DNA of 64,000 nucleotides from Gammaproteobacteria bacterium (GTDB lineage: Bacteria; Pseudomonadota; Gammaproteobacteria; JAKDMP01): NCBI GenBank assembly GCA_027018875.1, contig JALUYA010000001.1, forward strand, positions 13,457-77,456, read 5' to 3'. The translations under genes and the position numbers were made by a program. The stretch's first letter is position 1. Each line of letters starts with the position of its first letter. Under the pieces are notes generated by a model. That model was not told the origin of the DNA. It was given only the letters and a program-made list of their open reading frames with translations, and made no database searches. Shown one piece after another: positions 1-55,034 of this stretch.

Positions 1-2
1 GG

Positions 3-335
3 CCGGGGGAACAAGCGGGCTATCCCACCATATGCAAGGGAAGGTTCCGGGTTGGAGAGCATGTCTATTATGCGATGGAAGAGCCTACCAGCCTGAATAC
101 GTTGGATATTCTTCCCGAGCTGATGCGGGCGGGGGTCGCGGCCATAAAGGTGGAAGGGCGGCAGCGCAGCCCCGCCTATGTTGCGCAAGTAACCGCGGTC
201 ATGCGGGCCGCCATAGATGCTTGCCTTGCGGATCCTCAGGCTTATAAACCGCACGCGGCCTGGCAACAGGCGTTGGCGTCGGTTTCCGAAGGGACGCAGA
301 CAACCCTGGGCGCCTATCACCGGCCCTGGCTCTAG
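3..335 (+). CDS. ubiU: U32-family peptidase-like protein, 3' end (5'-truncated by window); likely UbiU, the partner of the downstream UbiV
   Basis: Frame 3 is open from the window start. C-terminal motifs EEPTSLN...LPEL...GV.AIKVEGR.RSP.YV are typical of U32 peptidases. Sits immediately upstream of a UbiV-like gene, as in yhbU-yhbV. The specific UbiU assignment rests on synteny only. Confidence 0.5.
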   Translation, partial: PGEQAGYPTICKGRFRVGEHVYYAMEEPTSLNTLDILPELMRAGVAAIKVEGRQRSPAYVAQVTAVMRAAIDACLADPQAYKPHAAWQQALASVSEGTQTTLGAYHRPWL

Positions 336-586
336 GGGGTTGTCGGAGGTAGGACGATTTTGCGGGGGTGAAGGGGAAAACAGTAAAGATCTCCCCGATT
401 TTTTGTAGTCTATCCCCGCTATACGCCTAGAAATCGGGAAAATTCCGCTTCTGCTTTCCCGTGTTGCTTGCGACAAGCTTCTGGAGCCGATGGTTACTAG
501 GTATCCAGGTGGGACACAAGCGTTGGGATCGGGGTTTCTTGTTGAGAGGTATGGGGATGGATGGATCAAATACGGAGACTCGGCCT

Positions 587-1492
587 ATGCAGCTTGCCTT
601 AGGACCACTGCTCTATTGCTGGCCACGAGAGCAGGTACTGTCTTTTTACGAGCAGGCAGCTGGATGGCCGGTGGAGATCGTTTATCTTGGGGAGGTCGTG
701 TGCTCGAAACGTCGGGTACTTTCTCTTGATGAGTGGCTCGACTTGGCTAAACACCTGGAATCGGCGGGGAAGCAAGTTGTCCTCTCCACCCTGACCCTGC
801 TGGAAGCCGGATCGGAACTGGGCGCCTTACGCCGCTTATGCCGTAACGGCCACTTTGATGTCGAAGCCAATGACATGGCCGCGGTCAATATACTTGCTGC
901 GGCCGGAGTTGAATTTATTGGTGGGCCCACATTGAATATCTATAATCCGCGAACGCTTGCGGTTTTGGTCGGGCAGGGGCTGCGCCGCTGGGTTTTACCG
1001 TTTGAGTTGTCGCATCCGGCGGCAAGCGAGTTAATCAATGCGGCTCCGGCTTCCTGCACCTGCGAAGTCTTTGCCTGGGGGCGGTTGCCATTGTCCTGGT
1101 CGGCGCGATGCTACACGGCAAGAGCCGAAAACCGTGCTAAGGATCAGTGTGAGATAATTTGCCGTAATGACCCGGATGGACGCCTGGTATCTACCCGCGA
1201 AGGACAACCTTTTTTGACGATTAACGGGGTACAGATGCAGTCTGCCCTAACCCAGGACCTGGCCCCCTGGATTCCAGAGATGGAAGCGGCCGGAATCCAG
1301 GTATTGCGCTTGAGTCCTCAGTATTCCGGTATGGATGAGGTGGTGGAATGCTTTGATCGACTGCGGCGCGATCCGGGCGATCAGGAGGTATTACGGCGCT
1401 TGCAGTCATTGGCTGCGGTAGGTGTCTGTGACGGCTACTGGCATGGTGAGGCCGGCTTTGCCAACACCGCGAACGGTTTGCAGCAGTCGTGA
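587..1492 (+). CDS. ubiV: U32-family [4Fe-4S] protein UbiV (O2-independent ubiquinone hydroxylation accessory protein)
   Basis: N-terminal [13 protein letters not shown] matches the UbiV/YhbV N-terminus. Cys pattern C-X12-C-X3-C ([18 protein letters not shown]) plus an upstream Cys matches the UbiV Fe-S ligands. Start moved to the internal ATG at 587; the listed ORF starts at 461. Confidence 0.75.
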
Positions 1493-1557
1493 ATTTTCTG
1501 CAACTGGGCGAAGGGCCAGTGTCGCGGTGGTTGGAACGTCGTGGCCGGTCGCGGTGG

Positions 1558-3015
1558 TTGGATCTCAGGGTGTTTCTGGAGGACCTGGAACAGCACGGAG
1601 AGTTACGCCGGGTTGGTGAGGCGGTGGATTCCCACTTGGAAATCACCGCCATTTGCCGCCAAAGCCTACTGCGCCAGGGACCGGCCCTGTTATTTGAGCG
1701 GGTGAAAGGCCGGGATATGCCGGTTTTGGGCAATCTATTCGGCGACACCAGGCGGATCGGCAGGGCACTGGGGTTGGAATCTTTGGAGGAGTTGCGCGAG
1801 GTTGGACGGCTGCTCAGTTTCTTCAAGTCTCCCCACTTGCCAAGCAACTTTTGGGATGGATTACAGGATGCGCCGCAATGGATGCGCCTGGCTCATTTGC
1901 GTCCTCGGCTGCTCAGTGAGGCAGCCTGTCAACAGAATGTGTGGGTTGGATCCGAGGTGGACTTGGAGAGACTACCGATCCAGACTTGCTGGCCGCAAGA
2001 CGTGGGGCCGTTGTTGAGCTTTGGATTGGTGGTGACACGGGGCACGCGCCAGCCGCGGCTTAACGTGGCAATTTATCGCCAGCAGTTAATCGGTAGGAAT
2101 AAGCTCATCATGCGGTGGCTTTCGCATCGCGGTGGCGCCCAGGACTACCGTGACTGGCTGCAGGAGCACCCGGATCGACCCTTTCCGGTGGCCGTCGTCC
2201 TGGGGGCCGACCCGTCAACCATTTTGGCCGCCGTGGCTCCCGTGCCCGATACCTTGTCCGAATATCAGTTTGCTGGGTTGCTACGGGGGGCGCGAACGGA
2301 GCTGACCCGGTGTACAAGCCACGATTTACTGGTTCCGACGAAGGCCGAGATCGTTCTGGAAGGGCATATTTATCCCGGGGAAACGGCCCTTGAGGGTCCC
2401 TTTTGCGATCACACCGGATATTACAATGCGGTCGCGGAGTTTCCCGTGTTCACCGTGGAGCGGATCTGCACCCGGGAAAATCCTTTCTATCACACCAGCT
2501 ATATGGGCCGGCCACCCGAGGATGAACCCTCCGTTTTGGCCCGTGCGCTCAATGAAATATTTATCCCGTTGTTACAAACCCAGTTTCCGGAAATCGTCGA
2601 TTTCTACCTGCCTCCGGCCGCCTGCTCCTACCGCGTTGCATTGGTGAGTATTCGCAAGCAATACTCGGGCCACGCGCGGCGCATTATGATGGGAATTTGG
2701 TCCTGGTTACGTCAATTTACCTATACCAAGTACATTATTGTCGTGGATGAAGATATCGACGTGCGCGATACCGGCCAGGTGCTATGGGCGATCTCCACCC
2801 GGTCCGATCCGGGTCGCGACTCCCTGGTTATAGACCGCACCCCGATAGACTACCTGGATTTTGCCAGCCCGGAAAGCGGCTTGGGTGGGAAATTGGGGCT
2901 TGATGCAACCCGGAAATGGCCCGGAGAGAGCAACCGGGAGTGGGGAAGGGTGGCGGTGATGAGCCCCGAAATCGAAGCCCGTGCACAAGCATTGTGTGAA
3001 CGATTGGGTATTTAA
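1558..3015 (+). CDS. ubiD: UbiD-family decarboxylase (3-octaprenyl-4-hydroxybenzoate carboxy-lyase)
   Basis: [35 protein letters not shown] and the ~490-aa length are typical of UbiD. Start is ambiguous: GTG at 1489 overlapping the ubiV stop, or TTG at 1558. The 1558 start was chosen from alignment to the E. coli N-terminus. Confidence 0.8.
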
Positions 3016-3140
3016 CACGCAATTCCGGGCGCCGGCGAGGTGCGAGTGTCTCTCGTCTGGGGGTAGAGTTTCGGAGCGGTAGGGTACAGGGGGCAAAAAA
3101 ATATATAATAAAGCAAGTTTTTGGTCGTTGGTGCTGCAAG

Positions 3141-3923
3141 GTGCATAGTCCCATCGTAGTTGCCCATTCCAACGTAGCAAGGGAGTCCTCCCTTGGCGTA
3201 GATACCCACTGTATCGCCTGCAAACTCTACCCCATGTGTTTACCTCGGGGTTTGCCCGATAAAGAGCTGGAGGACTTTGGCAGCCATATCCGTCGGCGGC
3301 GGATACTGCATCGTGGCCGGATGCTCTATCATGCCGGGCAGTCCTCGAAATCCCTGTACACCATTCGCAGCGGGTCCATTAAAACCTTTGCACTCAGTTC
3401 GGAAGGGGATGAAATGGTGGAAGGGTTCTATTATCCCGGGGAGTTGTTGGGGTTCGAGGCGCTATCTTCGGAACCGCATGATCACTTCGCATTGGCCCTT
3501 GAAACTACCGAGTATTGTGAAATTCCGGTCTCGCCCTTGAATCGGCTCATGTTGCGATCAGAGTCCCTGCGAAGACAATTGATACACATAATCACCAGGC
3601 GGATCACCGGTGATCGCCGCCAGGGGTATATCCGCAACCGGCGGGATGCACGTAGCCGGGTGGCCGCTTACCTGGTCGATGTGTCCCTGCGCCGTTCCCG
3701 CTGGCGCAAATCGTTGGATCACTTCCAGCTGAGCATGGATCGGCGTGATATAGCGGAGTACCTGGGGCTTACGATGGAAACCGTGAGCCGGTGCCTTACC
3801 CAGTTTCAACGCGAGGGGCTGTTGCGGGTCAAGGCCAAGTGGATTCGCCTGCTGAACCAGCAGGCATTGAGGGCGGTCTGCGGCAGCGATGTTTGGGAAG
3901 AATTGCATCGTGCCGTTGTTTAG
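3141..3923 (+). CDS. fnr: FNR/CRP-family transcriptional regulator, FNR/ANR type with N-terminal Cys cluster
   Basis: HCIACKLYPMCLP (C-X2-C-X5-C) and a central Cys in EYCEIP (C122 equivalent). cNMP-binding fold YTIRSGSIKTF...GDEMVEGFYYPGELLGFEAL. C-terminal HTH RRDIAEYLGLTMETVSRCL, as in E. coli FNR. Confidence 0.85.
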   Translation: MHSPIVVAHSNVARESSLGVDTHCIACKLYPMCLPRGLPDKELEDFGSHIRRRRILHRGRMLYHAGQSSKSLYTIRSGSIKTFALSSEGDEMVEGFYYPGELLGFEALSSEPHDHFALALETTEYCEIPVSPLNRLMLRSESLRRQLIHIITRRITGDRRQGYIRNRRDARSRVAAYLVDVSLRRSRWRKSLDHFQLSMDRRDIAEYLGLTMETVSRCLTQFQREGLLRVKAKWIRLLNQQALRAVCGSDVWEELHRAVV

Positions 3924-4112
3924 AAAGCGTGGCGGCCGGCTCCGGGTGTTAATCCCGACATCGATTCCCGGCATATCAATATGGCTTAAAGAGAATTCAA
4001 TGCGGATCGATTGAATGCTTCATTGAGCTTTCCGTGCTCATGGAACCAGTTGTAAAAAACTCCATATCATGCGTTTCCATTATTCGGAAAAACCTATTCA
4101 GGAGAGAATTTC

Positions 4113-5165
4113 ATGTCAGTTGCATTTCAAGCCTACCAAGAGCAGTTCAGCAACACTTCCCACGAGGTGGATGCCCTGGCGAATGAGGAGAAAATACGCC
4201 GAATCCTGGAATTGAAAGAGGAAAAACAAGCCGCCATTCTAGGTCATAACTATATGAATCCGCTGATTTACAACCTTTCGAACAGGGTGGAACGAGGAGA
4301 TTCCTTGGCGTTGGCGCGCTATGTCGCCACCACCGATAATCCCCTGATAGTATTCGATGGTGTGCTGTTTATGGCGGAGACGGCCAAGATCTTGAATCCT
4401 GAAAAGAAGGTGCTTATCGCCAGCAAGGAGGCGGGATGCAGCCTCGCCGATCCCATTCGGGCTGGCGAGGTTCGACGCCTCAGGGCGCAATACCCCCAGG
4501 CCCCCGTGGTGACCTATATCAACAGCTATGCCGATGTCAAGGCCGAGTCGGACATTTGCTGTACCTCCGCCAATGCGGTTGCCGTGATTATCCACATGTA
4601 TGAACAAACCAAGAGTAATACCATTATTTTTCTACCGGATTCACTCATGGGGGCTAATTTGCAGATGGAACTGGACAAGCTGGGAATCCCGATCCGGTTG
4701 GTGTATCCCGGCAAGAATAACCTTTTGAAAATGGTAAAGTGCGAAGTGCATGATCAGTTTGCGGTAGAAGATCTTCTGAGTGTTCGGGCGCAGTACGATA
4801 TCCCCAAGGGGCATCCCAACCGCGCGGTAATGGCTCACTGGGAATGTCGCCCGGAAGTTTTGGCCGAGGCCGATTTTTACGGAAGTACATCGCAAATGGC
4901 CCGGTTCATACAGTCACACGACATGGAACGGGTTTACCTGGTCACGGAATGCGAAATGGCGGCCAACCTAGTCAGTGAGTTTCCGCAGGTAGAGTTTGTA
5001 CGCTCATGCCAGGCCTATTGCCAATATATGCGTAAAATTACCCTTGATGGAATTCTTTCGGCCCTGGAAACGGAAGACCCCGAAAAACATGAAATCAATG
5101 TTGATCCGGCGCTGCGCTATAAGGCCTTGGTACCCATTCAGCGGATGTTGGATCTGCGCCTCTGA
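4113..5165 (+). CDS. nadA: quinolinate synthase NadA
   Basis: GHNYM, CCTSANAV and Fe-S Cys residues; ~350 aa; followed directly by nadB. GC content is visibly lower than the neighbouring genes. Confidence 0.85.
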   Translation: MSVAFQAYQEQFSNTSHEVDALANEEKIRRILELKEEKQAAILGHNYMNPLIYNLSNRVERGDSLALARYVATTDNPLIVFDGVLFMAETAKILNPEKKVLIASKEAGCSLADPIRAGEVRRLRAQYPQAPVVTYINSYADVKAESDICCTSANAVAVIIHMYEQTKSNTIIFLPDSLMGANLQMELDKLGIPIRLVYPGKNNLLKMVKCEVHDQFAVEDLLSVRAQYDIPKGHPNRAVMAHWECRPEVLAEADFYGSTSQMARFIQSHDMERVYLVTECEMAANLVSEFPQVEFVRSCQAYCQYMRKITLDGILSALETEDPEKHEINVDPALRYKALVPIQRMLDLRL

Positions 5166-5167
5166 CA

Positions 5168-6739
5168 ATGGCCGATTTCAAGTACATCATCGTCGGCAGT
5201 GGGATTGCCGGGTTGTACGCAGCCTTGCTTGCCAGCGAGCAGGGTTCGGTTTTGCTTTTAACGAAGGGTGGGCTGCAGGATTGTAATACCCGGTATGCCC
5301 AGGGTGGCATTGCCGCTGCTATCGGGGCCGGAGATTCACCGGCACTGCATTTAGAAGATACGCTTGGTGCCGGCGCCGGTCTGTGTGACGTGGAGGCCGC
5401 CCGAATTTTGACCGATAATGCGCCTCGTGCCATTGCCGACCTGGTTCGTTTAGGCGTCATTTTCGATACCGATCATGGTGAAGTCGCGCTAGGGCGGGAA
5501 GGGGCGCACCGATTGGCGCGGGTGCTCCATGCGGGCGGCGATGCTACCGGTGCCCATATAGAAACCGTGTTGGCCCGATTGGTCCAGGCGCGGCCTATCC
5601 GGATAGACGAATATTCGGCCGCGGTTGGGCTCGTGGTGGATGCCCGTTCGGGGAAGGTAACGGCCGTTGATGCGGTACAAGTGCGAAATGGCCAGACAAA
5701 AAGGCGATACACGGGCGAGGCGATCGTCCTGGCAACGGGAGGTGCCGGTCGGCTTTTCCGGCACACGACCAATCCCGAGGTGGCTACCGGAGACGGGGTG
5801 GCGTTGGCCTTTAACGCCGGAGCGGCGGTGGCGGATATGGAGTTTTGTCAGTTTCATCCAACGGCGCTGCGTTTTCCCGGGGCCCCCGCATTCCTTATTT
5901 CGGAGGCCGTGCGTGGAGAAGGGGCCGTCTTGCTTACGGGCGATGGAGATGCCTTTATGGCCCGTTATCATCCCATGAAAGACCTGGCTCCCCGGGATAT
6001 CGTTTCGCGGGCAATCGTAACCGAGATGCAGCGCGCGGCCACGGATCACGTGTTATTGGATATGACGCACCTTCCCGAGCAATGGCTGATTACCCGTTTC
6101 CCGACCATCTATCATACTTGCTTGCAAAATGGCGTGGACATTACCCGGGAACCCGTTCCGGTGGCGCCCGCCGCCCATTACATGATGGGCGGCGTGCTGA
6201 CTAATTCCTGGGGAGAAACCAACCTTCCCGGCTTGTTTGCTTGTGGCGAGGTTGCCTGCAATGGGTTGCACGGGGCCAATCGACTGGCCAGTAATTCGCT
6301 CCTGGAAGCCCTGGTGTTCGCACGCCGGGTCGTGGAGCGTGCCGGTTCCGGTATCTGGGAGGGGATCCGGTTTGATGACCCGCTGATTCTTGATCAGCCG
6401 GGCCTGTTGAACGCGGATGCGCCAACCTTGACCGCGGAAAACCTGGTGCAGACGATGTGGAACAAGGTCGGTATCGTTCGGGATGGGGTGGGGTTGGAAG
6501 AGGCGGTAGCGATCTTCAATTCCTGGGCGGGCTCATTGCCCGCCAGTGAAGACTTGACGGTACAGTCCTTGGCTAACCAAGTTCTGGTTGGCAGACTGAT
6601 GGCCCATGCGGCACAAGCCAGGACCGAGAGCCGGGGAGCACATTTTCGGCTTGATTTCCCGGCGCCGCGCCCAGAATGGGTGCGCCGGATCGTGATGGTG
6701 GCACATCCACCCGGAAACCCCTTTCCGAGCGAATCATGA
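5168..6739 (+). CDS. nadB: L-aspartate oxidase NadB
   Basis: FAD-binding N-terminus KYIIVGSGIAGL, RYAQGGIAAA and HGANRLASNSLLE motifs; ~520 aa. Confidence 0.9.
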   Translation: MADFKYIIVGSGIAGLYAALLASEQGSVLLLTKGGLQDCNTRYAQGGIAAAIGAGDSPALHLEDTLGAGAGLCDVEAARILTDNAPRAIADLVRLGVIFDTDHGEVALGREGAHRLARVLHAGGDATGAHIETVLARLVQARPIRIDEYSAAVGLVVDARSGKVTAVDAVQVRNGQTKRRYTGEAIVLATGGAGRLFRHTTNPEVATGDGVALAFNAGAAVADMEFCQFHPTALRFPGAPAFLISEAVRGEGAVLLTGDGDAFMARYHPMKDLAPRDIVSRAIVTEMQRAATDHVLLDMTHLPEQWLITRFPTIYHTCLQNGVDITREPVPVAPAAHYMMGGVLTNSWGETNLPGLFACGEVACNGLHGANRLASNSLLEALVFARRVVERAGSGIWEGIRFDDPLILDQPGLLNADAPTLTAENLVQTMWNKVGIVRDGVGLEEAVAIFNSWAGSLPASEDLTVQSLANQVLVGRLMAHAAQARTESRGAHFRLDFPAPRPEWVRRIVMVAHPPGNPFPSES

Positions 6740-50874: not shown

Positions 50875-51603
50875 TCAGATCGAGCTGAGGTGGATAAGCG
50901 CTGGAATGTCATTCAGCCACAATTCCTTTTGTTTTATTCCGATCAGGCCTTCGGTTTGGAGACGGGAAAAGGCCCGGCTCACGGTTTCCGAGGTGATATT
51001 CAGATAGTTGGCAATATCGCTACGCATCATGGGCAGAAAAAAATGTGTTGCCGATTGTCCCCGTTCATGCAGCCTACGGGAGAAATCAAGTAGAAACCAT
51101 ACGACACGTTCCTTAGCCGGGCGTTCAAGAACGGCTCGACGCGAGGCATTGATCTCTTGGCTCATCAGACGTAGCAAGGATTTTTGTAGATCCGGGAACC
51201 GACGGGCGGAATCCAGCAAAGCGTCAAATGAAAATCGACATGCGGTGGCCGTCCCCAGAGCAACCGCACAGGAGAAATACCGATTCGAGGCGATGCCGTC
51301 GAGGCCCACCAACTCGCCTGGTAGATGGAATCCCAGCACTCGTTGCAACCCGTCCCCATTCAGGGTATAGGTTTTGAAGACACCGGAACGGACCGCGTAC
51401 ACGGCCGAAAATGGATCCCCCTCCCGGTAGAGGTGATCGTCCTCGTGTAATACCGCACCAAATCGGGCAATTGTGTCGATTTCATGGAGTTTTTCCGGCT
51501 GCATGAGGGAGGGGATACATAGTTTAACGTTGCCACACAGGCTGCAACTGTGCGGGAATCTCCGCATTGACTCGCAACCCTTGCATGCAGCCTTGGCGCT
51601 CAT
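50875..51603 (-). CDS. fnr: FNR/ANR-type oxygen-sensing transcriptional regulator (second paralog)
   Basis: SCSLCGNVKLCIP (C-X2-C-X5-C-IP, as in E. coli CQDCSISQLCIP), central YFSCAVALG Cys, cNMP-binding fold, C-terminal HTH RSDIANYLNITSETVSRAF. Directly downstream of hemN. Start is either ATG 51603 or TTG 51645. Confidence 0.85.
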   Translation of the reverse strand: MSAKAACKGCESMRRFPHSCSLCGNVKLCIPSLMQPEKLHEIDTIARFGAVLHEDDHLYREGDPFSAVYAVRSGVFKTYTLNGDGLQRVLGFHLPGELVGLDGIASNRYFSCAVALGTATACRFSFDALLDSARRFPDLQKSLLRLMSQEINASRRAVLERPAKERVVWFLLDFSRRLHERGQSATHFFLPMMRSDIANYLNITSETVSRAFSRLQTEGLIGIKQKELWLNDIPALIHLSSI

Positions 51604-51680
51604 AGCCTTTTGTTTCCCCCATGTCAAGGAAAAAACCAACCCCAACGAAGGCTGATTTATTATAGCGCCTTAAAGGAAAC

Positions 51681-53087
51681 TCAGATAACCCGTGAGTGAA
51701 GTGTGCTTACGACTTTGTCGCTGGCTCTTGTACTACTGTGGGTATCGAAGACCATGGCAATGACCCGGAGCAATAGTCGGCCTCGACGGGTAATCCGAAA
51801 ACTCCCGCGAAGAAGGCCGTCGATCAGGCCGTCAGCCTCGAGTTTCGAGAGTGCCTGGAGTTCGGTGGCAAAGTAGCGCATGGCGTCAATTTCGTAATGT
51901 TCGGTTATCCGTGTAAGATCGATCTCGTCCTGGCACATTATGGCCTGGATGATGCTGCGCCGTATCAGGTCATCCCGGCTGAGCCGGTAGCCACGCTCGA
52001 TTGCCAGGGTTCCTGAATCAATGGCCTGGTAATAGGCAGTGAGGGTCTTGGCGTTTTGGGCGTAAACATCATCAACCGAGCTGATAGCACTCATGCCGAG
52101 GCCGAGAAGATCCCGGTAGGGTCCGACCGCATAGCCCTGAAAGTTTCGAATCAAATGCCCTTCACGCCGGGCACGGGCCAATTCATCACCGGGTAGGGCA
52201 AAATGATCCATACCGATATATTCGTAGCCTGCCGCGCCAAGCTGCTCGATGGCGTTTGTGATGAGTGCCAGCCGCTTTTCCCCCTGCGGCAGATCCGCTT
52301 CCGGGAGCATACGCTGGGACTTGAATAGCTGTGGCAAGTGCGCATACCCATATAGCGCCAGGCGATCCGGCGCGATATCTACAATTTGTTCCAGGGTGTG
52401 GCGAAACCGCGGTGGGTTCTGGCGAGGAAGCCCGTAGATTAAATCGAAGTTGATTGAACCGACCCCCGCCGCACGAGCGGCACGGGTCAGCGCTGCCACC
52501 TGCTTGGCAGGGAGAATGCGATTGACCGCAGCCTGCACTTCAGGGTCGAGATCCTGTACCCCGAAGCTCATGCGCTTGAACCCCATTGCCGCAAGGGCGC
52601 TGATATCATCAACCGTCACGCTACGAGGATCTATTTCAATAGACCAGACCTGGTCGCCTTCTCGATCTAGCGGTAGCCGTTGCCCCAGAGAATTGATGAA
52701 TTCAGCGAGTGCAGCAGGGGAGACAAAGCTTGGAGTGCCTCCTCCCAGGTGTAATTCCCGAATCGTTCTGGATGGATCGAGTAAAGGCGCGATTCGTGCA
52801 CTTTCTTCGAGTACGCGTTCAAGGTAAGGCCCGGCTTTTTCCGTATGCGGGGTAACGATTTTGGTACAGCCACAGTAATAGCAGAGCGTGTGACAAAAGG
52901 GGATATGGATATAGAGTCCCAGCGCCGAAGGGATTAAATCCTCATTGGAACGGTTGATAGCGGCCTTGAATTGATCTATGCCCGTGGCGCGATCAAATGA
53001 TGCCGCGGACGGGTAGGAGGTATAACGGGGGCCTCGGCGGTCATAGCGGCGGACGAGGTCGGAATCAAGAGTGGGCATGGCCGTCAC
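51681..53087 (-). CDS. hemN: oxygen-independent coproporphyrinogen III oxidase HemN (radical SAM)
   Basis: Radical SAM motif CHTLCYYCGC after YIHIPF, and the HemN C-terminal domain; 468 aa. Confidence 0.9.
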   Translation of the reverse strand: MTAMPTLDSDLVRRYDRRGPRYTSYPSAASFDRATGIDQFKAAINRSNEDLIPSALGLYIHIPFCHTLCYYCGCTKIVTPHTEKAGPYLERVLEESARIAPLLDPSRTIRELHLGGGTPSFVSPAALAEFINSLGQRLPLDREGDQVWSIEIDPRSVTVDDISALAAMGFKRMSFGVQDLDPEVQAAVNRILPAKQVAALTRAARAAGVGSINFDLIYGLPRQNPPRFRHTLEQIVDIAPDRLALYGYAHLPQLFKSQRMLPEADLPQGEKRLALITNAIEQLGAAGYEYIGMDHFALPGDELARARREGHLIRNFQGYAVGPYRDLLGLGMSAISSVDDVYAQNAKTLTAYYQAIDSGTLAIERGYRLSRDDLIRRSIIQAIMCQDEIDLTRITEHYEIDAMRYFATELQALSKLEADGLIDGLLRGSFRITRRGRLLLRVIAMVFDTHSSTRASDKVVSTLHSRVI

Positions 53088-53219: not shown

Positions 53220-53594
53220 TCAGGATTTCGGTGGTTTAACCGGCGGCTGCTTCAGAATCCAGGCGGCAATCGCATCCACCTGCTTCCTGCTGATGTTCGG
53301 ATGCGCAGGCATCGGAATGCCTCCGGTCCACTTTGACCAGTAGCCCGTGCCGCCATTAATGATGAACTTGGCGACCGCCTGGACCGCTTTTTGATGGTTC
53401 TCTCCCTTGTAGCGATACGCCACCCAGCCCCAGGCCGGGCCGAGTACCTTGTTGCTCTCGGCATGGCAGGCCGTGCACCCACGATTGCTCATCATGCTCG
53501 AGATGCTCGCAGCACTCGCCGCCGGCGCGGCGGCAAGTCCTATACCCCCTGCAGCGGCAAGAATCAAAGCGGGGGTAATGAATTTAATCCGCAT
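53220..53594 (-). CDS. periplasmic monohaem cytochrome c, class I (c551/c552 family)
   Basis: Signal peptide MRIKFITPALILAAAGGIGLAAAPAASA. CTACH haem site. GPAWGWVA...INGGTGYW...IPMPAH...AWIL pattern parallels Pseudomonas cytochrome c551 (GCVACH...GPA...NG..G.WG.IPMP...WVL). AGGAG RBS. Confidence 0.85.
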   Translation of the reverse strand: MRIKFITPALILAAAGGIGLAAAPAASAASISSMMSNRGCTACHAESNKVLGPAWGWVAYRYKGENHQKAVQAVAKFIINGGTGYWSKWTGGIPMPAHPNISRKQVDAIAAWILKQPPVKPPKS

Positions 53595-53681: not shown

Positions 53682-55034
53682 TCACCAAAGAATCCATGTC
53701 ATCAGGTAAAGCGTGTTGTTATCCGATGCACTGCGCCCATTTCCGTCATAGTTGCTGCTGGCACCGTTAAATTTGGTGTAAATCGTGTATTGCGCAGTCA
53801 ATTGTACATTCTGTGCCGGCAGATAGGTCCACTGCAGGATCCAGCCGCTGCTGTCCGGGGTACCTGTCCGGCTGCCCGAAACCGGGCCGGGAGCATAGAG
53901 CAGTGGATCGTAGCTTCCGGTCGTATGGAAATACCCGATCGATGGCCCAAACCGTCGGGCCCAATAGTATTGGGCCGAGACCTGCCAGGTATTGAGAGAG
54001 TCGTTGGGATTTGAGGCGAGGCCATTCGCAAAGCTGGCATTCAAGTCCTGTTTTTCATGGATATACATGAAATGTGCCGTCAGCGTCGAATGATCCCCAA
54101 AGAGCAATTGATACTGACTGTCCAGGCCCAGGTCCAGGTAGTTATCCGTGGCTCCGGATATGCCCCCCGGGAAAATGTGGCTATCCATACCGAAGGTGCC
54201 GATTTCGAATGAATTGGTGTTGTCATCCCGGTTCCAATTGTGCTGCCACGCGACCCGCCAGTAGGGGGCCAAGCCCGAAATGACGTCTGCCGAATATGGC
54301 TGAGATTGGCCGATTTGAGCGGAGCGGTAAACACTGACATTGGCATAAATGCTGTTATTAAACCACGCATAGGCCCCGATGCCCGCCACCTGTTGCATCA
54401 ACTGGATAATCATGGGTGTAGCCGATGGGGCCGGTGCGCTCGGCGATGCCACGTAGGGGAAACCTTCCGAAGGCGTGCCATTCCAGACATCCGCGAAAGT
54501 GGGTTGATTGTTGACATCAATACCCCAAACCACCGGATGTCCGGCTACCGTGGCATGGCGGGCGTAACGCAGGTCCGTCATGTCCATGGAAAAATGATCG
54601 GCTTGCGGGTCATAGGTAACCTGCAGGAAAGAGCCGATGTGATTGGCAATGCGCCCGGCATAATACAGGGCGAGAGCCCCTGGAAAGGCTACCGTATTAT
54701 TCTGGGTTCCCGGTACGGCTTGCTGCAGGGAAGTGTTCGATAGCATGACTGCTGCCGAAAGGGGCGGGAATCGGCTCAGACTCTCCTGCGGGGTTTTCGG
54801 CGGTGACGAGGGGTTGAAGGATTTCACACTCAGCACATAGCCGTTGATCTTGAAGTAACGGCCAAAAGGCGTTAGCTGCGGCGCAACAGTGTGGCAGGTC
54901 TCGCAGGGCAGTGCTGTCTGGCGGGAATAACTCGGTACGGCGAGCGCGCTTTGGGCCGCCAGCCCCAGCCCAAGAAAGCCCAACCCGGCTCCCCATGCCG
55001 CTTTCCTGATGAGGTGAAGATTCATTTTGGACAC
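53682..55034 (-). CDS. Cyc2-like fused monohaem cytochrome c / outer-membrane beta-barrel porin (candidate outer-membrane electron-transfer protein)
   Basis: Signal peptide ending AQSALA. A single CETCH about 15 residues into the mature protein. The rest (~400 aa) has alternating hydrophobic/aromatic beta-strand patterns. Ends LYLMTWILW, i.e. a terminal aromatic beta-signal typical of outer-membrane proteins. This is the architecture described for Cyc2 of Acidithiobacillus and neutrophilic Fe oxidisers. Confidence 0.65.
   Translation of the reverse strand: MSKMNLHLIRKAAWGAGLGFLGLGLAAQSALAVPSYSRQTALPCETCHTVAPQLTPFGRYFKINGYVLSVKSFNPSSPPKTPQESLSRFPPLSAAVMLSNTSLQQAVPGTQNNTVAFPGALALYYAGRIANHIGSFLQVTYDPQADHFSMDMTDLRYARHATVAGHPVVWGIDVNNQPTFADVWNGTPSEGFPYVASPSAPAPSATPMIIQLMQQVAGIGAYAWFNNSIYANVSVYRSAQIGQSQPYSADVISGLAPYWRVAWQHNWNRDDNTNSFEIGTFGMDSHIFPGGISGATDNYLDLGLDSQYQLLFGDHSTLTAHFMYIHEKQDLNASFANGLASNPNDSLNTWQVSAQYYWARRFGPSIGYFHTTGSYDPLLYAPGPVSGSRTGTPDSSGWILQWTYLPAQNVQLTAQYTIYTKFNGASSNYDGNGRSASDNNTLYLMTWILW

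Follow-up and report, generated by a model that had tools for sequence, protein, structure and literature searches.

A predicted oxygen-independent ubiquinone synthesis locus in an uncultured gammaproteobacterium, with one FNR box between ubiT and ubiU and a chorismate-mutase-like gene beside ubiT

Introduction

How does a bacterium keep making ubiquinone (UQ) when oxygen is absent, and how are the genes involved brought together and controlled? This question is raised by the left end of a 64,000-nucleotide stretch of DNA from an uncultured gammaproteobacterium (GenBank assembly GCA_027018875.1, contig JALUYA010000001.1, positions 13,457 to 77,456 of the forward strand; hereafter, the window), where four plus-strand genes, namely, a fragment of ubiU followed by ubiV, ubiD and fnr, fill the first 3.9 kb. 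UbiU and UbiV are defined as a heterodimer that is needed for UQ synthesis without O2. Our analysis indicates that positions 1-3923 of the window very probably belong, as its right-hand portion, to a locus for O2-independent UQ synthesis, and what this locus represents is the known UbiTUV pathway in another, uncultured gammaproteobacterium.

The Fe-S cluster ligands of UbiV have been defined experimentally (PMC6747719), the oxygen donor of UbiU-UbiV is prephenate, which in Escherichia coli comes from PheA/TyrA (PMC10990095), and the E. coli ubiUV and ubiT genes are activated by FNR from their shared intergenic region (PMC10470549). Against this background, we asked which parts of the pathway are encoded around the window, how their expression might be coordinated, and which neighboring genes accompany them.

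Results

UbiU, UbiV and UbiT

The first gene of the window is truncated, and the 110 C-terminal residues that it encodes (window positions 3-335) match the UbiU model NF047963 with 163.8 bits, covering positions 223-330 of the 331 in the profile, compared to 29.2 bits for TrhP. The rest of the gene and the ubiT region upstream of the window are supplied by a public contig found by exact-protein look-up (hereafter L001), which shows 0 mismatches over the 7,059 bases shared with the window and extends 9.4 kb upstream of it. Full-length UbiU reaches 565.5 bits against the 440-bit cut-off of the UbiU model and is 66% identical to E. coli UbiU (65% over the window fragment). In alignments for which the ubiT-ubiU-ubiV and fnr loci of E. 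coli K-12 served as references for the cysteine ligands, all four UbiU ligands, C169, C176, C193 and C232, are kept in the L001 copy, C232 being the only one encoded inside the window. A preliminary description of the window had named this gene UbiU by synteny; the identity stands, and the profile match supports it without recourse to synteny.

UbiV, a protein of 301 amino acids (aa), reaches 372.6 bits on NF047965 (cut-off, 275) and 47.6 bits on the U32 domain PF01136 (cut-off, 22.4), and its matches in the profile search were limited to two UbiV-type models. It is 43% identical to E. coli UbiV, with C39, C180, C193 and C197 (C-Xn-C-X12-C-X3-C) invariant, which bears out the C-X12-C-X3-C spacing and the additional N-terminal cysteine that had been read from the window; once L001 is included to complete the UbiU set, the four conserved cysteines expected in each of the two proteins are all present. 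The ubiT gene, which the preliminary description proposed to seek elsewhere in the genome, is found in L001, 139 bp upstream of ubiU and divergent from it, and its product matches NF047962 with 127.2 bits (cut-off, 46.9) and the SCP2 domain PF02036 with 49.3 bits. A PDB sequence search with UbiU and UbiV returned no relatives of either.

Thus completed, the locus consists of fabB, fabA, a chorismate mutase (CM)-like gene and ubiT on one strand and, diverging from them, ubiU-ubiV-ubiD on the opposite strand, after which come fnr and nadA-nadB (Table 1). The whole locus recurs in the same order in a sister taxon (L083), with proteins 84-96% identical and synonymous sites about 35% different. The best UbiV match in the genome collection is 69% identical, and the organism can be placed no more closely than near metagenome-assembled genomes of the Ectothiorhodospiraceae/Thioalkalivibrio type.

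The FNR box between ubiT and ubiU

The preliminary description suggested that an FNR box be sought upstream of ubiU. The 138-bp region between ubiT and ubiU indeed contains one, and only one, perfect palindromic box, TTGATATTTATCAA, at L001 8681-8694, where 6e-5 such boxes would be expected by chance. The identical box occurs in L083, with 93% identity over the intergenic region around it, and the position is conserved in five further relatives (UbiV 66-69% identical), in which the intergenic DNA is otherwise unalignable: across the seven sequences, the only invariant columns upstream of ubiU are the ATTGA...TCAA half-sites and TAnnCT, 22 nt after the box. More broadly, in a set of 74 loci, the density of boxes with one mismatch or none is about 7 times higher within 250 bp upstream of ubiU than over the loci as a whole.

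On either side of the box, at a distance of exactly 22 nt, there is a hexamer resembling a -10 element, TAnnCT toward ubiU and, in L001, TAAATT toward ubiT. A spacing of 22 nt between box and -10 element corresponds to a site centered at -41.5, that is, the class II FNR arrangement. We therefore propose that the box, TTGAT-N4-ATCAA, has class II geometry, at about -41.5 of two predicted divergent promoters, so that one FNR dimer could serve both. In the intergenic regions before ubiV, ubiD, fnr, nadA and hemN, no FNR box with two or fewer mismatches was found.

Linkage of ubiD and the ubiU-ubiV spacer

The placement of ubiD directly downstream of the ubiUV genes in the preliminary description proved accurate, and the linkage is tight: the GTG start of ubiD overlaps the TGA stop of ubiV by 4 bp (GTGA), an overlap that is kept in L083 and also occurs in the unrelated metagenomic lineages L089 and L094. 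All 3 Pfam domains of the family, UbiD_N, UbiD and UbiD_C (PF20695, PF01977 and PF20696), match the protein, which scores 480.9 bits on TIGR00148 (cut-off, 244.85) and has its best PDB match in E. coli UbiD (5m1c/2idb; 676 bits, end to end), the next family member scoring 170. Among 80 loci from reference genomes, ubiD was found near ubiUV in Lysobacterales only. The 5' end of ubiD contains two direct copies, 27 nt apart, of the 15-nt sequence GTCGCGGTGGTTGGA (window 1521-1562), which encode SRWLE...SRWLD; the gene may start at GTG 1489 or at a later GTG/TTG.

The genes ubiU and ubiV themselves, previously presented as a pair, turned out not to be contiguous but 251 bp apart, as opposed to 2 bp in the next five relatives. 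The spacer is 84% identical to that of L083 and hence more conserved between the sister taxa than synonymous sites. Its predicted RNA fold is no better than that of shuffled sequence (z = +0.76), a weak 24-nt inverted repeat was all that was found in this respect, and a sigma-70 and terminator scan of its plus strand produced no sigma-70 consensus and nothing convincing. Rfam contains no match for the spacer, nor for window positions 1-4200 as a whole at E <= 1.

The fnr gene next to ubiD

The fnr gene, previously placed about 130 bp beyond ubiD, starts 125 bp after it, and its product keeps the FNR cluster ligands and the E--SR motif. Public gene calls begin the gene at ATG 3234 (229 aa), so that two of the four Fe-S cysteines are lost, whereas a start at GTG 3141 (260 aa) restores the C-X2-C-X5-C motif. 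The upstream start is supported because the profile alignment begins at residue 9 and because the differences from the sister taxon are in-frame and mostly conservative. Both this protein and a second FNR encoded in the window keep C20, C23, C29 and C122 of E. coli FNR together with the DNA-reading residues E209, S212 and R213. The hexamer TATAAT at 3104-3109, which sits in a block 100% conserved with L083, is likely the -10 element of a promoter of fnr's own.

A chorismate-mutase-like gene beside ubiT

The gene that follows ubiT encodes a 105-aa protein matching the CM_2 domain PF01817 with 64.5 bits (cut-off, 27) and reaching none of the NCBIfam chorismate mutase equivalog cut-offs. It keeps the equivalents of R11, R28, K39, R51 and E52 of the E. 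coli enzyme (EcCM), but A occupies position 48, F position 84 and V position 88, so that it departs, as does its whole subfamily, from the canonical active site (R11, R28, K39, D48, E52, S84 and Q/E88 in EcCM, PDB 1ECM). Because the full canonical site is not present, we file the protein as CM-like rather than as a proven mutase. When 1.84 billion representatives were searched in full with HMMER, close relatives of the protein proved to share its unusual motif in helix 3, R-x-[FL]-x-x-P, and in a profile search, the nine clusters of this subfamily score 115-161 bits, as opposed to 80 bits or less for all other chorismate mutases. Compared with the AroQ mutases at large (the N-terminal domains of PheA/TyrA, 1ECM) and the isochorismate-pyruvate lyase PchB, the ubiT-linked proteins thus share the domain and 5 residue equivalents and differ in helix 3, where the motif replaces the canonical S84...Q/E88; position 48 is A or S in these proteins and D in PheA, with TyrA also lacking the D.

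The gene overlaps fabA by 4 bp, an overlap conserved in L083, and its ratio of nonsynonymous to synonymous substitution rates (dN/dS, 0.24) indicates purifying selection, albeit with less constraint than on its neighbors (67% versus 84-96% identity). Given this ratio, the intact frame and the conserved overlap, a decaying open reading frame (ORF) was rejected.

Members of the subfamily come from L001, L083, L087, L088, L089-L091 and L093-L095, and the gene is often followed by fabA-fabB. Wherever enough flanking DNA was available, the subfamily gene adjoins ubiT (7/7); outside this count are one member on a 3-kb contig carrying CM-fabA-fabB only and another on a contig too short for context. 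Three arrangements recur: fabB-fabA-CM-ubiT diverging from ubiU-ubiV-ubiD, in the window's lineage and L083; ubiU-ubiV-(ubiT) diverging from either CM-fabA-fabB or CM-fnr; and (ubiU) diverging from ubiT-CM-ubiV-ubiD. Two proteins served as controls: P0279, which ranks next below the gap in score, is encoded within a trp/aro operon, and P0134, a small chorismate mutase of the ordinary kind, has neither ubi nor fab genes as neighbors. The intergenic regions between divergent ubiT and CM genes in L088 and L093 contain perfect or one-mismatch FNR boxes. A metagenome scan with the subfamily alignment confirmed nothing.

Related clusters in Lysobacterales

In Lysobacterales, the UbiT ORF itself begins with a CM_2 domain, both domains being confirmed by Pfam; besides the example in Table 1, this applies to at least 15 other loci (e.g., L025, L029, L040, L043 and L044). 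The CM::UbiT architecture occurs in at least 120 protein clusters, and one database name for it is 'predicted lipid carrier protein YhbT/chorismate mutase'. Here the CM domain is canonical, keeping R11, R28, K39, D48, E52 and Q88. That the separate gene of the window's lineage split off from this fusion was rejected, its nearest relatives among the 1.84 billion representatives being small stand-alone AroQ proteins; with no such descent, the link between CM and UbiT arose at least twice. In the literature searched, coverage of which was incomplete, no report linking UbiT to chorismate mutase was found, and UbiU was found together with chorismate mutase in the PheA work only.

The likeness extends to the surrounding genes. 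In Rhodanobacter, Lysobacter, Stenotrophomonas, Thermomonas and Dokdonella, the clusters comprise ubiD-ubiU-ubiV, fabB-fabA, nadB-nadA, CM::ubiT and an fnr-type gene, which together provide the functions found in the window's lineage, packed into about 12 kb (L057 6869-18289 and similar loci), and FNR-like boxes lie 51-57 bp before ubiU in many of them. The nadA-nadB neighbors are thus common to the window, L083 and the Lysobacterales clusters. The differences concern gene order and strands, with ubiD preceding ubiU, and the fusion of a canonical CM domain to the UbiT N-terminus in place of a separate gene. Recent transfer between the two lineages is not supported, protein identities being only 36-68%. 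In E. coli K-12, fnr, fabA, fabB, nadA and nadB are all located away from the ubiTUV locus.

Other features of the window

The preliminary description also listed hemN, a second FNR, nadA and a cytochrome region with an FNR box, all of which were located (Table 1), and maeB and the ccm genes are present as it had them. The center of the second perfect box lies 106.5 bp before ccmA and 57.5 bp before the start of a gene for a 450-aa protein (53682-55034, minus strand), the same box-to-start spacing as at ubiU. In the 450-aa protein, a signal peptide and one CXXCH motif are combined with a long body of barrel-like character, the last residue of which is W; the protein has no Pfam or NCBIfam match and resembles the Cyc2-type fused cytochrome-porins of iron oxidation. 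Between this porin-like gene and hemN, a small minus-strand ORF (about 53228-53594) contains a CXXCH motif (CTACH) and is probably the gene for a small c-type cytochrome that shares its operon with the porin-like gene. By size and order alone, the series of ORFs at 34-48 kb resembles a nuo operon, and the other genes have housekeeping functions (dnaK/dnaJ/grpE, carAB, ftsH and type II secretion). Upstream of the window, L001 1401-5684 encodes a rubrerythrin and, for the assembly of Fe-S clusters, an IscS-like/NifU_N pair, kept in L083, a neighborhood that fits a region rich in Fe-S enzymes.

Table 1. Coordinates of the features discussed (window positions unless a contig is named)
Feature	Position	Strand	Remarks
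ubiU 3' end, last 110 codons	1-335	+	gene start 669 bp before window
ubiU-ubiV spacer, 251 bp	336-586		
ubiV, [4Fe-4S] U32-family subunit of O2-independent hydroxylase	587-1492	+	NF047965, PF01136
ubiD, 4-hydroxy-3-polyprenylbenzoate decarboxylase	1489-3015	+	three UbiD Pfam domains, TIGR00148
TATAAT, likely -10 element of fnr's own promoter	3104-3109	+	predicted, read from the sequence
fnr, 260 aa from GTG 3141, O2-sensing Crp/FNR regulator	3141-3923	+	best NCBIfam match PRK11161
nadA-nadB (quinolinate synthase, L-aspartate oxidase)	4113-6739	+	PF02445, 300.3 bits; TIGR00551, 523.9 versus cut-off 452.75
nadA	4113-5165	+	
Second fnr	50875-51645	-	PRK11161
hemN	51681-53087	-	TIGR00538, 526.8 bits versus cut-off 324.95
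Second perfect FNR box in the window, TTGATCTAGATCAA	55085-55098		
CM-like gene, 105 aa	L001 7477-7794	-	1.6-1.9 kb before window start
ubiT	L001 7914-8606		divergent from ubiU; outside window
ubiU, full gene	L001 8745-9749		NF047963
CM::ubiT fusion, Lysobacterales example	L057 15976-16836	-	

Discussion

Here, we explored a gene neighborhood that appears to equip an uncultured gammaproteobacterium for UQ synthesis without O2. In the mechanism that we propose, a [4Fe-4S]-FNR dimer would, without O2, bind the single TTGAT-N4-ATCAA box between ubiT and ubiU and activate both ubiT, along with the CM-like gene and fabAB, and ubiU-ubiV-ubiD. UbiU and UbiV, each with one [4Fe-4S] cluster, would then carry out the ring hydroxylations with prephenate as the oxygen-atom donor, UbiT would carry the lipid intermediates by means of its SCP2 domain, and UbiD would perform the decarboxylation, by a route that works without O2. 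Given the gene content, including hemN, it is reasonable to suppose that the organism keeps up its quinone and haem supply without O2.

Several observations weigh against this reading. Which genes form transcription units, where transcription starts, whether it depends on FNR and what the enzymes do are all inferred from the sequence. The FNR encoded next to ubiD has its best match in PRK11161 Fnr, at 205.2 bits, from residue 9, and the second FNR scores 180.7 bits on the same model, both under the cut-off of 228; furthermore, with two FNR paralogs in the window, either might use the box. UbiD, too, scores 706.6 bits on PRK10922, under the cut-off of 788, and no flavoprotein gene that could be ubiX was seen in the annotated parts of the window or L001. 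A conserved stretch of 251 bp separates ubiU from ubiV, and ubiV-ubiD could therefore also have a promoter of their own. Finally, the part of the genome covered here consists of the 64-kb window and 9.4 kb of L001, and O2-dependent hydroxylases may lie beyond it.

This last point bears on an alternative, which we consider improbable, namely, that the module is the organism's only route of UQ hydroxylation at all O2 levels, a general ubi operon to which fnr is incidental. Such a role has been proposed for the corresponding genes of Magnetococcus marinus, Phaeospirillum fulvum and Oxalobacter formigenes, the conserved spacer could hold an FNR-independent promoter, and no gene for an O2-dependent hydroxylase was seen in the window. 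However, the sequence covered is a small part of the genome, the O2-independent pathway coexists with the O2-dependent one in 98% of carrier genomes (Pelosi et al., PMC6747719), and a perfect, positionally conserved FNR box, with its proposed class II geometry, lies before both ubiU and ubiT. Far less probable still, to the point of being negligible, is that the two U32 proteins are RNA-modifying, prephenate-dependent hydroxylases of the TrhP/RlhA type or collagenase-type peptidases rather than quinone hydroxylases. The PF01136 domain is common to both kinds of protein, TrhP and RlhA likewise combine the U32 fold and a four-cysteine Fe-S site with prephenate as the oxygen donor, and UbiU has a secondary TrhP match of 172.3 bits. 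That score is, however, a third of the TrhP cut-off (534 bits), whereas UbiU and UbiV each clear the cut-off of their own equivalog model by far; TrhP and RlhA, whose models the window proteins fall far short of, act on other substrates and differ in cysteine spacing, UbiV having the family-specific C-Xn-C-X12-C-X3-C motif and not CX6CX15CX3/4C; and the identity to the E. coli proteins (66% for UbiU and 43% for UbiV) and the flanking ubiT and ubiD genes all argue for quinone hydroxylation. The caution in the preliminary description that the pair might group with TrhP, RlhA or the collagenase-type U32 proteins is, accordingly, answered by the profile scores in favor of UbiU and UbiV.

The role of the CM-like gene is a more delicate issue. 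We tentatively propose, as a suggestion that falls slightly short of an even bet, that the UbiT-UbiU-UbiV pathway includes a fourth, lineage-variable and so far unrecognized component, a dedicated AroQ chorismate mutase or CM-like protein that makes prephenate or hands it over at UbiT-UbiU-UbiV, and that this link has arisen at least twice. The gene might, less plausibly, be unrelated to UQ and either belong with fabA-fabB or encode a spare enzyme of aromatic amino acid synthesis. The 4-bp overlap with fabA, seen in the window's lineage and in L088, and the position of the CM-like gene before fabA-fabB in four lineages fit that possibility, as do its faster evolution relative to its neighbors and the absence of the canonical S84/Q88 positions. 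Conversely, L089-L091, L094 and L095 have the gene placed between ubiT and ubiV-ubiD, without fab genes, and in L087, a crp/fnr gene comes after it. All seven members with sufficient context adjoin ubiT, and the two controls have other surroundings. Moreover, in Lysobacterales, a canonical CM domain has become fused to UbiT independently.

Among characterized systems, the yhbT/yhbU/yhbV locus of E. coli is one of the closest. It shares the divergent ubiT and ubiU-ubiV genes, the full set of Fe-S cysteines, the prephenate donor, the SCP2 accessory protein and FNR sites in the common intergenic region (PMC10470549). These sites are, however, two in number and imperfect, F1 and F2, one per promoter (PMC10470549), as opposed to the one perfect palindrome in the window's lineage. 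Furthermore, ubiV is followed by yhbW in E. coli and by ubiD in the window, the gap between ubiU and ubiV is 8 bp compared to 251 bp, and E. coli, having no dedicated chorismate mutase for the pathway, draws on PheA/TyrA (PMC10990095). In Magnetococcus marinus, the genes of the O2-independent hydroxylase are reported to be likewise linked to shared ubi genes, in a bacterium that is reported to lack O2-dependent hydroxylases (PMC6747719). Linkage of ubiTUV to other ubi genes is, therefore, not new in kind, having been noted already for Magnetococcus.

Mutants in ubiD and ubiX make some UQ in air and none without O2 (Pelosi et al., PMC6747719). A 2026 preprint confirms that UbiD/UbiX are essential for UQ only anaerobically, ascribes the aerobic bypass of UbiD/X to an O2-dependent route and finds UbiUVT in only about 2% of genomes without UbiD/X (bioRxiv 10.64898/2026.03.05.709815). 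Given that UbiD/UbiX are indispensable only without O2, the predicted ubiUV-ubiD operon can be seen as packaging the steps that specifically need an O2-free solution, and the presence of ubiD in it provides physical support for the recent proposal that UbiD/UbiX represent the O2-independent decarboxylation route.

FabA and FabB provide an oxygen-independent route to unsaturated fatty acids. As a hypothesis only, ubiTUV, ubiD, fabA-fabB, nadA-nadB and fnr might then constitute a recurrent island of oxygen-independent biosynthesis.

The results presented here add one more organism, an uncultured gammaproteobacterium, to those equipped to make UQ without oxygen, and do so with an unusually clean regulatory layout, in which one perfect FNR site is proposed to serve two divergent promoters. 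Arguably, the more useful lead is not this core finding but the linkage of chorismate mutase to UbiT, manifest both in gene neighborhoods and in gene fusions, which offers a separate, genomic line of support for the view that prephenate donates the oxygen in the O2-independent synthesis of UQ.

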